The notes under the pieces are model-generated. The model was not told where the DNA came from. It did no database searches and was given only the letters and a program-made list of their open reading frames with translations. The position numbers were made by a program, and so were the translations under genes. From an uncultured Sphingobacteriales bacterium (GTDB lineage Bacteria > Bacteroidota > Bacteroidia > Chitinophagales > Chitinophagaceae), in contig CALMQS010000124.1 of NCBI GenBank assembly GCA_937871285.1, positions 2,233 through 66,232 on the forward strand: 64,000 bases of DNA. Direction: 5' to 3'. Numbering within the stretch: position 1 is the stretch's first letter; each line of letters begins with the position of its first letter. This document shows, one piece after another, positions 2,298 through 23,158 of this stretch.

Positions 2298-2579
2298 CTA
2301 AATCGCTTTTACAACAAAACGATGAGAGAGATCATACTGAAACATTCAGTCTTTAAAGCCTCAGCCGGTACAAGTTCCTGTACCCGCTAAGGATTAGTGT
2401 AAAACCGGATGCATTCTGTGTATCCGGCCTTTGTTTAGTGCTTAGCTTATACTCACTAAGATGTTCACAGTGCAGAAAAGAGTTTTCAATCATTGATAGC
2501 TTAATGAAACCGGTCTGCTTTTCTGACGGAATGTTTTAGAAATATTCCCGGGCATTATCTCTTTACCGGATTGCCTAAG

Positions 2580-2650
2580 AGGTGCTGACCGGATTTGAAC
2601 CGATGTATCGGCTTTTGCAGAGCCGTGCCTAACCACTCGGCCACAGCACC
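2580..2650 (-). tRNA. tRNA-Cys (GCA)
   Basis: Reverse complement folds as GGTGCTG/CAGCACC acceptor, GCC/GGC D stem, CGGCT-CT(GCA)AA-AGCCG anticodon arm, ATCGG-TTCAAAT-CCGGT T arm; U discriminator; CCA not encoded. Confidence 0.97.
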
Positions 2651-2704
2651 ATTTCATAACGCGTTATCATTTTCAAAGGAATATTACCTAAAGTAACTAC
2701 AGGG

Positions 2705-2899
2705 CTATGTTTTTAAAATGGTACGCGGGCGTTCTTTTCGCAAAAAATACGGCAGGAAAGAGGTTATCACAAAAGCCAGAAAACCGGCTATATTTCTGCC
2801 TTTCGGATTACCTGCCACAGCTTTTTTTTCATGCGGCAGCCATGCATAATCTTCTTCCTCCCCGTACCGAAAGCCATCCGTATTCTTTTGCTTTGACAT
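2705..2899 (-). CDS. Possible small membrane protein (64 aa) upstream of tRNA-Cys
   Basis: A-rich start context and one hydrophobic stretch (IAGFLAFVITSFLPYFL); no family recognised. Confidence 0.3.
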   Translation of the reverse strand: MSKQKNTDGFRYGEEEDYAWLPHEKKAVAGNPKGRNIAGFLAFVITSFLPYFLRKERPRTILKT

Positions 2900-2933
2900 T
2901 TTTTGACATTTTTATTGACAACAATACAAAGGC

Positions 2934-2963
2934 AAAGCTATCCTGTAGACACAGGACAGCTTT
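2934..2963 (-). terminator. 13-bp hairpin (terminator/attenuator-like) downstream of the 2972-3061 sORF
   Basis: AAAGCTGTCCTGT-GTCT-ACAGGATAGCTTT on the minus strand, followed by T-rich sequence. Confidence 0.5.
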
Positions 2964-2971
2964 GGTGTACC

Positions 2972-3061
2972 TTATGACTCGATGACATGAGTGGATTCGA
3001 ACCACATACGTGATAAACCACGTCTCTTCCTGTAGTAAAGAGCATGCATTTTAGTAAACAT
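2972..3061 (-). CDS. Candidate leaderless sORF MFTKMHALYYRKRRGLSRMWFESTHVIES (29 aa)
   Basis: ATG lies 4 nt after a TACTTTTG -7 box; overlaps the cloverleaf. Confidence 0.35.
   Translation of the reverse strand: MFTKMHALYYRKRRGLSRMWFESTHVIES
2982..3049 (-). ncRNA. tRNA-like cloverleaf element (non-canonical)
   Basis: GCATG/CATGT closing stem, CTCTT-TACTACAGG-AAGAG D-like arm, ACGTG-GTTTAT-CACGT arm with a 6-nt loop, GTGG-TTCGAAT-CCAC canonical T arm. Confidence 0.4.
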
Positions 3062-3065
3062 GCTC

Positions 3066-3110
3066 CAAAAGTATTTTAATACTATTAGTCTACCAAATTA
3101 ATAGAATAAT
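3066..3110 (-). promoter_or_regulatory. Sigma70-type promoter (-7 TACTTTTG at 3066-3073, -33 TTTG at 3094-3097) with palindromic operator 3084-3110
   Basis: ATTAGTCTAC-CAAATTA-ATAGAATAAT; 20-nt -33/-7 spacer. Confidence 0.7.
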
Positions 3111-3173
3111 AATTTTTTATTGCACATTTCCACGTCCCAACAACTTCATAAAAAATTATTCTTCAAAAATAAA

Positions 3174-3217
3174 ATTAGTCTACTTATTTTGTAGACTAAT
3201 AAAATCTCCTATATTTG
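3174..3217 (+). promoter_or_regulatory. Sigma70-type promoter (-33 TTTG at 3188-3191, -7 TATATTTG at 3210-3217) with perfect palindromic operator 3174-3200
   Basis: ATTAGTCTAC-TTATTTT-GTAGACTAAT; 18-nt spacer, slightly short of consensus. Confidence 0.75.
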
Positions 3218-3221
3218 CAGC

Positions 3222-3272
3222 ATGAATTATCCTTCGCACAGGTTTCGTTGTTGTTGCCGCCTGGCAACATAA
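3222..3272 (+). CDS. Candidate Cys-rich leader peptide MNYPSHRFRCCCRLAT
   Basis: ATG 4 nt after the -7 box; three consecutive Cys codons (TGT TGT TGC); GTTGCC-GCCT-GGCAAC hairpin covers the Cys codons and ORF end. Confidence 0.55.
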   Translation: MNYPSHRFRCCCRLAT

Positions 3273-3358
3273 TCAATTATACACCGCTCCATGCGGAAAT
3301 CATTTTCCTTCCATTTACAAGGTTTTAAATATCACATCATAAAATATAATTCATTGTT

Positions 3359-4264
3359 ATGGGTACCATAAACAACTCCCTGTTCCATTTAGGGGATACA
3401 TTAACAACAGAACAGAAAAACTTTTTCCACAAATTTGGCATATTACAGTTCCGTAATTTTATAGATAAAGCAACGGTGGCCTCCTTTATAGAAGAGATCA
3501 GCAGTGTAGAACAAGAGTTATTAACCGAAGGCATACAAAAGATCAATGGCATACCACTGAAATTTGGAAAGAATACAGACGGAAGGCGCTTTATCCAGCG
3601 TATAGCATTCACCTCCCAGCATAGCAACCGGCTTAGCGTATTTCTTAAAGACAAACGCCTGGCAGCACTGGTTGCATTGCTGTATCCGTATGAAGGAAGG
3701 GTGGGCGAAAACGAAAAAGACGGGCTGGTGCTTAACCACTACATTAATACCCCGGACAGCGAATACAAGCAGCTCGGCTGGCATACAGACAGTCCCCGGG
3801 ATATATTCCTGGGATCGAGGATCATGCCCATGCTGAATGTTGGCCTGCATTTGGACGATTATCCTTTCGAGAAGGGAGGATTGAGAGTACTAACGGGAAC
3901 GCATACCCAAAATTTATTCCGGTTGCTGTTCCGAAAAAAATATTTTGTAGACAATGATCCTGATCCCCGGGAAGTAGGCTTTAATATTGAAGCCGGAGAC
4001 CTCACCGTTCATGATGGCAGGCTATGGCACAGGGTTCAACGCTCTGCATATTCCGGCGATGAAAGCCGCCGCAGGGTAATGTATATCCCGATTGTAACCG
4101 GCGCATACAGGCCTAAACACGCAGACAGCCCAACGCCTTTTTATCACAAGCTGGCCTTACCCAGGCTGGAACGGTACCGCGAGAGCCTCAGGTGGCCCAC
4201 TGTAAAAGAAAAAGGGCTGAAATGGAGCAGACTCGTTTCAGCAAAGCAACCTGAAAAAATATAA
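3359..4264 (+). CDS. Phytanoyl-CoA dioxygenase (PhyH)-family 2OG-Fe(II) oxygenase
   Basis: WHTD (HxD) ... GGLRVL.GTH ... GDLTVHDGRLWH ... RRVMY facial-triad pattern. Confidence 0.85.
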   Translation: MGTINNSLFHLGDTLTTEQKNFFHKFGILQFRNFIDKATVASFIEEISSVEQELLTEGIQKINGIPLKFGKNTDGRRFIQRIAFTSQHSNRLSVFLKDKRLAALVALLYPYEGRVGENEKDGLVLNHYINTPDSEYKQLGWHTDSPRDIFLGSRIMPMLNVGLHLDDYPFEKGGLRVLTGTHTQNLFRLLFRKKYFVDNDPDPREVGFNIEAGDLTVHDGRLWHRVQRSAYSGDESRRRVMYIPIVTGAYRPKHADSPTPFYHKLALPRLERYRESLRWPTVKEKGLKWSRLVSAKQPEKI

Positions 4265-14631: not shown

Positions 14632-14658
14632 ATTAGTCCACAAAATTAGTAGACTATA
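14632..14658. promoter_or_regulatory. Palindromic operator copy in the susC leader
   Basis: ATTAGTCCAC-AAAATTA-GTAGACTATA; no matching -7 box found next to it. Confidence 0.65.
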
Positions 14659-14727: not shown

Positions 14728-14805
14728 TTAAGGATTGTCGCCGAAGTAATGAAAATAACTTAAAACATGGTTAGTATTACTACAACGAATTGTAGTAATA
14801 AACAT
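14728..14805 (-). CDS. Candidate leader peptide MFITTIRCSNTNHVLSYFHYFGDNP
   Basis: TIRCS motif resembles TLRCS at 21422-21469; an 11-bp TTCG-loop hairpin (14775-14800) is centred on the Ile-Arg codons and its 3' arm carries the Cys codon. Confidence 0.4.
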   Translation of the reverse strand: MFITTIRCSNTNHVLSYFHYFGDNP

Positions 14806-14863
14806 GATTCAAACGTGATAAAAATCAATTAAACATCATCACTTACGGGGATAAAAGGCATAG

Positions 14864-14938
14864 CTATAAAGCTAAAGTGGACATCAGCCACAAAGGACAT
14901 CGTGACATGGAATAGTCAATATGGTTACTACGCTTCAT
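14864..14938 (-). CDS. Candidate leader peptide MKRSNHIDYSMSRCPLWLMSTLAL
   Basis: ATG 9 nt after the -7 box; contains RC and 3 Met. Confidence 0.35.
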   Translation of the reverse strand: MKRSNHIDYSMSRCPLWLMSTLAL

Positions 14939-14947
14939 AATTAAATG

Positions 14948-14992
14948 CAAAACTATATTATTTATATTAGTCTACAAATATTATAGACTAAT
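14948..14992 (-). promoter_or_regulatory. Sigma70-type promoter (-7 TAGTTTTG at 14948-14955, -33 TTTG at 14975-14978) with operator 14966-14992, driving susCD
   Basis: ATTAGTCTAC-AAATATT-ATAGACTAAT; 19-nt spacer. Confidence 0.78.
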
Positions 14993-21504: not shown

Positions 21505-21549
21505 CAAAACTAATATCAATTTATTAGTCTACCAAATAAGTAGACTAAT
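21505..21549 (-). promoter_or_regulatory. Sigma70-type promoter (-7 TAGTTTTG at 21505-21512, -33 TTTG at 21533-21536) with perfect operator 21523-21549
   Basis: ATTAGTCTAC-CAAATAA-GTAGACTAAT; 20-nt spacer. Confidence 0.8.
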
Positions 21550-21678: not shown

Positions 21679-21711
21679 CTGCAGTTCTTTACACCGTATG
21701 ATTTACGGAAT

Positions 21712-21829
21712 ACTTATCAAGAAAGGTGGAGGGTAATGGCCCTGCGAAGCCTTGACAACCTCCTTTTATGCCGCATGGAATAAAAGGGAAGGTGCCAATT
21801 CCATCACGCCAACGGCGTGGGAGATAAGC
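21712..21829 (+). ncRNA. SAM-I (S-box) riboswitch
   Basis: CTTATCAAGAAAGGTGGAGGG...GGCCC...GAAGCC...CAACC...GGTGCCAATTCC...GAGATAAG; P1 CTTATC/GATAAG; P4 CACGCC/GGCGTG. Confidence 0.95.
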
Positions 21830-21867
21830 CAGATTCATAGCTCCGCAATATGTGTAACACAATATTT

Positions 21868-21900: not shown

Positions 21901-21970
21901 GTTGCTCCCCGGTATGCTTTTTTGATAAGTGTTCTTTACCCAATTAATTCACATTTTAAATCAAAAAAAG

Positions 21971-23158
21971 ATGAGCAACAACGCAACAAGCCTTATTCAC
22001 AGCATTCCCGTTGATCCTTTAACCGGAGCTATTGCCGTACCCATTTACCAAACCAGCACATTTATCCAGGAAGCCCCCGGTATAAATAAGGGTTATGATT
22101 ATGCCCGCACCGGCAATCCTACCAGGCAGGCGCTCGAAAACCTTATTGCCACGCTGGAAAAAGGAACCACAGGCATTGCTTTTGCCAGCGGACTGGCAGC
22201 TATTGACGCGGTAGTAAAATTATTGGAAAGCGGCGATGAAATACTGGCGGTGGATGACATCTATGGCGGCGCATTCCGCCTGTTCACACACATTTACGGG
22301 AAATTCGGCGTCACTGTAAACTACGTTGATACAACGCGGGCCGAAAATGTTTTTAACGCCATTACTCCCAAAACCAGGCTGATATGGATTGAAACACCTA
22401 CCAATCCTACGTTAAAAATTTCCGATATCCGGGCCGTGGCTGCCATTGCAAAGGCCAGCGGGTGTTTGCTGTGCGTAGACAATACCTTTGCATCACCGGC
22501 GCTTCAGCAGCCACTTGAGCTGGGTGCAGATATTGTCGTTCATTCTGCTACCAAATATCTTGGCGGCCACAGCGACCTGATAGCCGGTCTTGTGATCACC
22601 AAAACAAAAGAGTTAGGCGAAAAAATAAAATTCATTCAAAACGCGAGTGGCGCCATTTTGGCTCCGTTCGATAGCTGGCTGGTGATACGCGGCATTGAAA
22701 CTTTACACCTGCGCGTAAAGCAACATTGTTTTAATGCCCAGGCTGTAGCAGCATTTCTACAATCACATCCCGATGTTGACCAAGTTTATTACCCGGGATT
22801 AAAATCGCATTTCAATCATGCCATTGCGGCTCAGCAATCAAAGGGTTTTGGCGGTGTTGTTTCTTTTACCCTCAAAGATGATACAGAAGAAGCCGCCACT
22901 GCATTTGTTACTTCCACCCAATATTTTAAGCTGGCAGAAAGCCTGGGCGGTGTAAAAAGCCTGTTGTGCCATCCCGCACAAATGACCCACCTGTCTATTC
23001 CGGCAGAAAAGAGGAAAGCCGCCGGCGTTGCAGACAGCCTCATCAGGCTAAGCGTGGGATTAGAAGATGCCGGTGACCTGATCAGTGATCTGCAGCAGGC
23101 GTTTGAAAAAATTAAAACCAGGCAGCATTCAGTAAAAAAGCCGGTGGCTCACATATAG
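21971..23158 (+). CDS. metB: Cystathionine gamma-synthase/lyase (Cys/Met metabolism PLP enzyme)
   Basis: YDYARTGNPTR, FASGLAA, ETPTNP, VDNTFASP, HSATKYLGGHSD, LAESLGG; downstream of a SAM riboswitch; MetB versus MetC/CGL not resolvable by eye. Confidence 0.85.
   Translation: MSNNATSLIHSIPVDPLTGAIAVPIYQTSTFIQEAPGINKGYDYARTGNPTRQALENLIATLEKGTTGIAFASGLAAIDAVVKLLESGDEILAVDDIYGGAFRLFTHIYGKFGVTVNYVDTTRAENVFNAITPKTRLIWIETPTNPTLKISDIRAVAAIAKASGCLLCVDNTFASPALQQPLELGADIVVHSATKYLGGHSDLIAGLVITKTKELGEKIKFIQNASGAILAPFDSWLVIRGIETLHLRVKQHCFNAQAVAAFLQSHPDVDQVYYPGLKSHFNHAIAAQQSKGFGGVVSFTLKDDTEEAATAFVTSTQYFKLAESLGGVKSLLCHPAQMTHLSIPAEKRKAAGVADSLIRLSVGLEDAGDLISDLQQAFEKIKTRQHSVKKPVAHI

Follow-up and report, generated by a model that had tools for sequence, protein, structure and literature searches.

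The window analysed here is a stretch of 64,000 nucleotides (nt) from an uncultured Sphingobacteriales bacterium (Chitinophagaceae), and its sequence equals that of contig DAOMPK010000015.1 (assembly GCA_035444765.1, from activated sludge). Its minus strand potentially encodes an RNA of about 135 nt, hereafter the element, upstream of a gene for a 64-amino-acid protein (p64) and of a tRNA-Cys. In an initial annotation the element was described as a tRNA-like cloverleaf under operator control that overlaps a candidate leaderless short open reading frame (ORF). The element is not a tRNA, and the ORF, judged by comparison between clades, is not a conserved peptide gene. The explanation that we prefer, with a confidence slightly short of even, is that the element is the operator-controlled 5' leader, or a short RNA, of a unit containing p64 and possibly tRNA-Cys, and that it would end in an attenuating intrinsic terminator. 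The order of the parts fits such a leader: the -7 box lies at 3073-3066, the terminator hairpin at 2964-2933 followed by its tail, and the p64 start codon at 2899, and the same order is found in a sister clade.

The operator control proposed in the initial annotation is borne out as architecture. The palindrome TAGTCTA-N9-TAGACTA occurs five times in the window (3086-3108, 3176-3198, 14634-14656, 14968-14990 and 21525-21547) against 0.11 expected, and these copies front PhyH, the element and two TonB-dependent receptor operons. Those at 21525 and 14968/14634 lie ahead of the receptor operons, one of which has an HMA-domain receptor. Every oriented copy holds a -33 TTTG in its spacer and is followed, 11-12 nt beyond the palindrome, by a -7 box (minus strand 3073, 14955 and 21512; plus strand 3210, for PhyH), and this geometry is constant at four promoters, namely those of the element, of PhyH and of the two receptor operons. 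The operator-like copy in front of the element, palindrome A (3086-3108), reads TAGTCTA-N9-TAGAATA on the plus strand, and on the minus strand its spacer holds the TTTG at 3097-3094. The gap from it to the -7 box is 12 nt, as at 14968-14990 and 21525-21547. The -7 box itself, TACTTTTG (3066-3073, minus strand), was read directly, is of the Bacteroidota type and is invariant in all relatives. The palindrome might fit a T-N11-A box; a literature search on the operator half-sites returned nothing relevant.

Sequence comparison indicates that the element promoter is a second, inverted, paralogous copy of the neighbouring PhyH promoter. The promoter module of the element (module A) is 84% identical, in reverse orientation, to the PhyH-ward promoter of the related contig L051. 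It also aligns with the PhyH module of the window (module B) through (G/C)AGC-ATG, with no similarity past that point. In the mechanism that we propose, this inverted operator-promoter copy would drive minus-strand transcription from about position 3061. The first 135 nt or so would be a non-coding leader: its A/U-rich 5' end is conserved, its middle evolves rapidly yet retains two small hairpins, and then come a third, T-arm-like hairpin, also conserved, a conserved linker and a strong intrinsic terminator. Initiation would be set by a regulator binding the operator, the terminator would then stop most transcripts and yield a short RNA, and read-through (attenuation) would allow expression of the small membrane protein and possibly of tRNA-Cys.

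The predicted transcript (2923-3061, minus strand) runs from the purine 5 nt past the -7 box, A3061, which we take to be the start from the Bacteroidota promoter consensus, to the end of the terminator tail, as given by a terminator scan. Its first small hairpin, H2 or D-like (3024-3042), consists of CUCUU, a 9-nt loop ending in GG, and AAGAG. The second, H3 or anticodon-like (3008-3023), consists of ACGUG, the 6-nt loop GUUUAU and CACGU, and is separated by 2 nt from the T-arm look-alike GUGG-UUCGAAU-CCAC (2991-3005), in which the closing pair beyond the 4-bp stem is U.U. The linker UCAUGUCAUCGAGUCAUAAGGUACAC (2965-2990), which includes the stop codon of the short ORF, is unchanged in three haplotypes of the window's clade. 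The hairpin 2964-2933 with its tail CCUUUGUAUU (2923-2964) was found by the scan as an intrinsic-terminator-like structure; the hairpin has 14 pairs, where 13 had been annotated, six of them G-C, and the tail CCTTTGTATT. The p64 start codon follows 33 nt past this hairpin. A CCTTTGT tail is common to the element terminator and to a bidirectional hairpin at 2405-2427, between a 315-amino-acid ORF and tRNA-Cys.

Nine element-bearing sequences were compared, amounting to two independent lineages. These are the window, two near haplotypes of its clade found in public contigs (B, from runs X3, X4 and X18, and C, from X10), and a sister clade of six contigs (L106-L111), about 80% identical, which was reached through homologues of p64. 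All six sister-clade contigs bear the same module; five adjoin PhyH-SDR, and L106 has another upstream gene. The order within the module is fixed: operator palindrome, -7 box, RNA of about 135 nt, terminator, gene for a membrane protein of 61-64 amino acids, and tRNA-Cys (degenerate in the sister clade). A further relative has an identical PhyH-to-p61 spacing. In all nine sequences p64 or p61 stands directly downstream, where the contig extends that far, and the p64 homologues (88% and 77% identity) lie downstream of the element every time.

Conservation along the module is uneven. Between the window and L107, with background spacers at 64%, identity is 92% in palindrome A, 87% (20/23) in the first 23 nt of the RNA, 43% in the two middle hairpins, 89% (16/18) in the T arm, 76% in the linker (where GGUACACC is invariant), 78% in the terminator, 88% from the terminator to the ATG, 85% in p64 and 72% in tRNA-Cys. 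Within the window's clade, 11 variable sites fall in 3006-3065 and none in 2937-3005; a Poisson estimate for the latter is about 1e-4, for an interval chosen post hoc. Both clades thus share the 5' end, the positions of three local hairpins, the linker and the terminator. The part of the minus strand between 3008 and 3042 is less conserved than apparently neutral spacers (43% vs 64%). H3 has the loop UCUUGU both in the sister clade and in haplotype C, which suggests that alleles were exchanged or that the polymorphism is old.

The initial annotation had asked for covariation of its four helices, and this was found in part. The T hairpin is kept. Its stem is invariant in all nine sequences and therefore gives no information on pairing, and the sister-clade loop has a G to U change at the equivalent of R57. 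H2 reads CCUGC, a 10-nt loop ending in GGA, and GCAGG in the sister clade, against CUCUU/AAGAG in the window; after realignment all five pairs are Watson-Crick in both clades and four of them have changed on both sides. MAFFT misaligns this arm, which then appears broken, and an H2-type stem at that offset arises in 1.2% of shuffles. H3 is partly broken in the sister clade, with one compensatory pair, one lost pair, two G-U pairs and three of its six loop bases changed. The closing stem of the cloverleaf, AUGCAUG (3049-3043) with CAUG-U-CAU (2989-2982), comprises seven pairs and one 1-nt bulge in the window; in the sister clade two of the seven are broken (U.C and A.A) and one is G-U.

The cloverleaf helices and the T arm are all present on the minus strand where they had been annotated, each pair having been checked individually. 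The isolated 68-mer (3049-2982) folds into the cloverleaf as its minimum free energy (MFE) structure at -17.3 kcal/mol (-15.0 for the version first drawn), against -12.4 +/- 3.0 for shuffled sequences (p = 0.07), and the cloverleaf as a whole is not above background. An RNA starting at A3061 has the cloverleaf plus the terminator as its MFE structure, at -43.5 kcal/mol. An alternative 5' hairpin, in which 3065-3059 pairs with 3046-3040, had been proposed to sequester both the ATG and the closing stem. This hairpin exists and is favoured when the RNA starts at 3065 or earlier (-47.5 vs -42.9 kcal/mol), but it is not the MFE structure from A3061. In the sister clade the MFE structure is a long hairpin that consumes the T arm, at -45.8 kcal/mol vs -37.2 for three separate hairpins, and the probabilities of the individual helices are near 0. 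A conserved four-way cloverleaf is not supported, given the lost closing pairs and the differing consensus and sister-clade folds. No fold is shared with the sister clade, and the cloverleaf is thus specific to the window's clade.

The tRNA identity of the element was searched for by several routes. With default settings ARAGORN reports tRNA-Cys alone in the window; it calls the element site only at 80% of the default threshold or below, where 32 "tRNAs" appear in the window. Rfam was run at gathering score and at E<=10 in three search spaces. At E<=10 its tRNA model RF00005 gave nothing in the 1.1-kb search nor in the 151- and 171-nt searches of the window and L107, although such narrow searches do list matches as low as 9-13 bits. 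The element matches none of the 4227 families of Rfam 15, including tRNA, transfer-messenger RNA (tmRNA) and T-box, and the best match within the tRNA clan is an 11-nt T-loop fragment of tmRNA at 5.8 bits (gathering score 47). The anticodon-like loop has 6 nt and not the 7 of a U33 loop, and in the sister clade and haplotype C it reads UCUUGU, in agreement with the annotated view that it is not a decodable anticodon loop. The T loop is canonical in the window (UUCGAAU) and has a pyrimidine at position 57 in the sister clade (UUCUAAU).

The T arm itself is rare. Its exact 15-mer is unique in the window, with about 0.002 occurrences expected per 64 kb. A looser pattern (4-bp stem and TTCRA loop) is expected about 0.1-0.25 times per window, and in roughly 0.5 Mb of related DNA it matches one true tRNA and the element site only. 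In genuine tRNAs of many kinds the 20-mer GTGGTTCGAATCCACTCATG forms the T arm and the beginning of the 3' acceptor strand: it was found at 36 metagenome and 6 viral loci, 33 of the 42 being called as tRNA and two of these as tRNA-Cys. In these tRNAs the T stem has 5 bp closed by an A-U pair, where the element has U.U. Outside the T arm the likeness ends. The 44 nt on the 5' side of the T arm are no more similar than chance to the 5' portions of 18 different tRNAs with this T arm (p = 0.88), and with the empty model searches this speaks against the decayed tRNA that had been suggested. The element is likewise unlike the window's own tRNA-Cys apart from the T arm, as had been noted (p = 0.18 and 0.76). 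A displaced 3' end of that tRNA-Cys was considered and rejected, the T arms being different and the orientation not that of an attachment-site repeat. The T-arm look-alike is a single conserved hairpin, which either happens to resemble a tRNA T arm or descends from one.

The short ORF (2972-3061, minus strand; 29 codons and a stop, MFTKMHALYYRKRRGLSRMWFESTHVIES) was annotated correctly: its translation is exact and its ATG (3061-3059) lies 4 nt past the -7 box, the same spacing as at the PhyH promoter. As a conserved peptide gene it fails. Within the window's clade six codon changes are non-synonymous (F2I, A7V, Y10R, G15V, S17L and M19T) and two synonymous (R13 and L16). In the sister clade the ATG is a GTG, the middle is read in a shifted frame owing to three 1-nt indels (net +3), and past FTK the peptide VFTKKYACSLWSRGTSCCVRGSNPLLSSGT bears no relation to that of the window. 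The start and stop nevertheless fall in the same alignment columns in both clades, but the openness of the frame is not significant (estimated p of about 0.1). Cysteine codons are lacking in the peptides of the window and haplotypes B and C, and the sister clade has C8, C17 and C18. No similarity to the PhyH poly-Cys leader was detected beyond the promoter (p = 0.98, 0.98 and 0.94).

Several observations weigh against the p64 leader. Covariation is thin, with two independent lineages only, and RNAalifold on the MAFFT alignment returned 0 compensatory pairs and another fold, of the long-hairpin type with the 5' end paired to GGUACAC before the terminator. The terminator is retained in the sister clade but is weaker there, and it has a 2x2 internal loop. 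No convincing conserved antiterminator was found; a 6-nt candidate, seen by eye in the alignment, would set ACAGGA/GCAGGA against UCCUGU of the terminator 5' arm. The gene that would be controlled is only weakly constrained: between clades, 12 of its codon changes are non-synonymous against 7 synonymous, and the frame is shifted at the C terminus. A possible internal -7 box, TAGCTTTG (2940-2933), in the 3' arm of the terminator in the window only, could serve p64 independently; in favour of the leader, however, between the terminator and the p64 start no -7 box is conserved, TAGCTTTG in the window corresponding to CAGCTTTG in the sister clade. Finally, no RNA run contains the sequence, the two metatranscriptomes from the same samples being tiny and empty.

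Four other explanations were weighed against the leader. The element might be a non-functional relic, in which the T arm and its 3' flank were left from a tRNA gene at a rearrangement junction, either a decayed tRNA-Cys neighbour or an integration scar, while the other hairpins and the ORF arose by chance and conservation came from overlap with the terminator and the region upstream of p64. The 20-mer shared with the 3' end of many real tRNAs, two tRNA-Cys among them, suits such an origin, as do the position of 2347-3065 between two synteny blocks, the sister-clade decay of tRNA-Cys at this very locus and the evolution of the element's middle at a rate above background. We nevertheless hold a relic to be unlikely. 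No tRNA similarity extends beyond the T arm, the tRNA model finds no match even in the 151-nt search, and the 64-kb window has no direct-repeat partner and no second tRNA, nor is there an integrase among the neighbours scanned. Moreover, the T hairpin and the 5' end are conserved above the 64% background, and the pairing of H2 is kept through four double changes. A stand-alone, trans-acting small RNA of the same regulon seems less probable again; this terminated RNA, also about 135 nt long, would pair with target mRNAs through its conserved, single-stranded 5' end (AUGUUUACUAAAA) or through the linker, and p64 would use a promoter of its own. A regulated promoter with a strong terminator and conserved ends around a variable middle are what many small RNAs have, and the possible internal -7 box within the terminator arm could provide the separate p64 promoter. 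That box is not conserved in the sister clade, however, complementarity to targets is limited to one chance-level 18/20 match inside a gene, and the element never occurs apart from p64.

The short ORF could also act without a conserved product. As a translated leaderless leader, it would be entered by ribosomes at a 5'-terminal AUG or GUG, like the neighbouring poly-Cys leader of PhyH; how far they advance towards the stop codon, 8 nt before the terminator, would decide whether the terminator forms, and the peptide would be irrelevant. The (G/C)AGC-ATG start common to the PhyH promoter copy, where the start opens a conserved poly-Cys ORF, is consistent with this, as are the start and stop columns kept despite the three indels, and leaderless poly-Cys attenuators of mycobacteria offer a precedent (10.1101/834739). 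We consider it quite improbable: Cys codons are absent in the window's clade and number just three, scattered, in the sister clade, the open frame is not significant, the sister clade starts with GTG, and a ribosome at the stop would probably cover only 2-3 nt of the 14-bp stem. A true tRNA mimic, whose four helices, or T hairpin and GG-ending loop forming an "elbow", are recognised by RNase P/Z, TruB/TrmA or a sensor, with processing or a switch as the outcome, has the slightest chance of the four. The MFE structure from 3061 is exactly the cloverleaf and terminator, U54, U55, C56 and A58 of the T loop and the terminal GG of the H2 loop are present in either clade, and a tRNA-Cys belongs to the same unit. 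Against it stand the U.C and A.A mismatches in the acceptor-like stem of the sister clade, the long sister-clade hairpin that consumes the T arm, the changing 6-nt anticodon-like loop, the lack of any tRNA, tmRNA, T-box or other Rfam match, and an ARAGORN signal at background level only. That the T hairpin and the GG-ending loop form an elbow mimic bound or cut by a tRNA-recognising factor, which would tie p64 and tRNA-Cys to tRNA or cysteine status, is a scarcely better prospect.

Compared with known systems, a leader with a terminator is an ordinary kind of element. As in other intrinsic-terminator leaders (attenuators and riboswitch-like leaders), the promoter is followed by some 100 nt of structured, untranslated sequence and by a hairpin whose tail is U-rich; an ORF begins 33 nt beyond, and its linkage to the leader is conserved. 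The element differs from them in having no ligand, defined antiterminator or Rfam match and in occurring in two close clades only. With canonical bacterial tRNAs it shares, letter for letter, GUGG-UUCGAAU-CCAC and the next 5 nt, which equal the T arm and the start of the 3' acceptor strand of tRNAs for Leu, Tyr, Cys, Met, Ile, Arg and Phe. Unlike these, its T stem has 4 bp instead of 5, the U8/N9 spacer is missing, the D-like stem has 5 bp, the anticodon-like loop has 6 nt, the variable region 2 nt, and the acceptor stem is bulged. The tRNA-like domains of tmRNA and YrlA have curated models, and the element is below threshold for all such models, the tmRNA fragment being the best. What it has in common with these RNAs, and with tRNA-Other of Bacillus cereus, a regulatory pseudo-tRNA described in PMC3399842 as predicted and as flanking a genomic island, is a tRNA-derived or tRNA-like non-decoding nature near tRNA genes or rearranged DNA. 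The mycobacterial attenuators resemble it in the start codon 4 nt past a -7 box at the predicted 5' end, in the short ORF before an operon and in the neighbouring paralogous promoter, which drives a real poly-Cys ORF, MNYPSHRFRCCCRLAT; the element ORF differs from them in having no Cys run in the window's clade and an unconserved peptide and in belonging to Bacteroidota (10.1101/834739).

If the leader explanation holds, the element would add a lineage-specific case to the few cis-regulatory RNAs so far characterised in Bacteroidota, and it would illustrate how a unit is assembled, a duplicated and inverted operator-promoter having been placed before a relocated small gene. The T-arm look-alike could be a natural substrate or decoy for T-arm-recognising enzymes.

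The protein p64 (2705-2899, minus strand), annotated as a gene in the source assembly, has an N-terminal EEEDYAW motif and one C-terminal hydrophobic helix. Across its small-protein family (L001 2179-2397; L112-L117) the motif EEEDY[AG]W is invariant and the C-terminal half is hydrophobic. In several Chitinophagaceae the order is cysK (PALP), cysE (hexapeptide), p72, the palindrome and PhyH, where p72, a distant member of the p64 family with 72 amino acids, is the last gene; in the window's clade p64 is inverted and has its own promoter copy. A plus-strand ORF at 2707-2985, opposite p64, was judged spurious, as it overlaps p64 and has no Pfam match. The tRNA-Cys (GCA) downstream of the element was confirmed at 2650-2579 on the minus strand, 55 nt downstream of p64, by ARAGORN and by Rfam (64.9 bits). 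The sister-clade copy (L106-L110) is degenerate and goes undetected by ARAGORN: another sequence stands in place of the anticodon arm, the T loop has an insertion and the acceptor strands are unpaired.

The locus has its greater value next door, in a widely conserved poly-Cys leader, an operator common to TonB-dependent receptor genes and a recurrent link to tRNA-Cys. At the PhyH promoter (3210-3272, plus strand) the -7 box TATATTTG is followed after 4 nt by the 16-codon ORF MNYPSHRFRCCCRLAT, whose three consecutive Cys codons overlap a hairpin at 3253-3268. In Chitinophagaceae and Larkinella, PhyH orthologues are preceded by conserved runs of Cys, from CCC to CCCCCC and usually with R next (L001-L007, L013, L014, L016, L017, L051, L054, L055 and L107). 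This leader looks like a poly-Cys leader-peptide attenuator, of the leaderless type described in mycobacteria (10.1101/834739). Two unrelated arrangements place tRNA-Cys beside the poly-Cys-leader/PhyH operon: in the window's clade it is divergent, and in Larkinella it is on the same strand, where it lies about 70 nt upstream of the leader ORF (plus strand; L014 2632-2719, L055 2643-2714). The repeated linkage is unlikely to be coincidental. The element looks as if it sits in a cysteine-linked regulon, because of the poly-Cys PhyH leader, the p64 family next to cysteine genes and tRNA-Cys twice adjoining the PhyH operon. Together, the leader, the shared operator and the tRNA-Cys link open the idea of a cysteine-responsive regulon in Chitinophagaceae and Cytophagales to direct testing.

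Elsewhere in the window, an S-adenosylmethionine (SAM) riboswitch (78.6 bits; 21711-21830, plus strand) precedes a pyridoxal-phosphate enzyme of Cys/Met metabolism (21929-23158) and is divergent from a palindrome-controlled TonB-dependent receptor operon. A second palindrome-promoter module (14775-14955, minus strand) drives a short unit, in which a 24-codon ORF, MKRSNHIDYSMSRCPLWLMSTLAL, opens 9 nt past the -7 box and the sequence TATTACTACAA-TTCG-TTGTAGTAATA forms a hairpin of 11 bp; another palindrome and a SusC-like receptor gene follow. In related bacteria, many contigs carry the same palindrome motif of about 33 nt in other contexts.

To judge from these searches, the element is restricted to the two close lineages. 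It is not kept in the relatives reached through PhyH (56 genomes), where only the operator and the PhyH leader are conserved; genus-level relatives on this route retain the palindrome, the -7 boxes and the PhyH leader (window 3066-3121 and 3152-3279). The relatives reached through the left neighbour are collinear up to about 2346 only and have no tRNA or element there, and segment 2347-3065 is flanked by two synteny blocks. A covariance model built from the nine sequences and run on about 0.5 Mb of related loci recovered the training sequences and no further copy, a weak match in L037 being a plain terminator. An exact 20-mer scan of metagenome and viral contigs gave genuine tRNAs and unrelated sites only, with no homologue of the element.

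Towards lower coordinates, the minus strand of the locus carries in order palindrome A, the -7 box, the element, the terminator-like hairpin, p64, tRNA-Cys and the hairpin at 2427-2405, and the plus strand carries PhyH (3359-4264), an SDR gene and a DUF6134 gene. The PhyH-family protein is at most 80% identical to proteins of Agriterribacter and Terrimonas (Chitinophagaceae, Bacteroidota). Further to the left, positions of about 1107-1113 mark a deletion junction: L100 and L102-L104 have a baeRF_family3 gene before the 283-amino-acid ORF, and L102-L104 have a Usp gene after HSP20, the window having neither.

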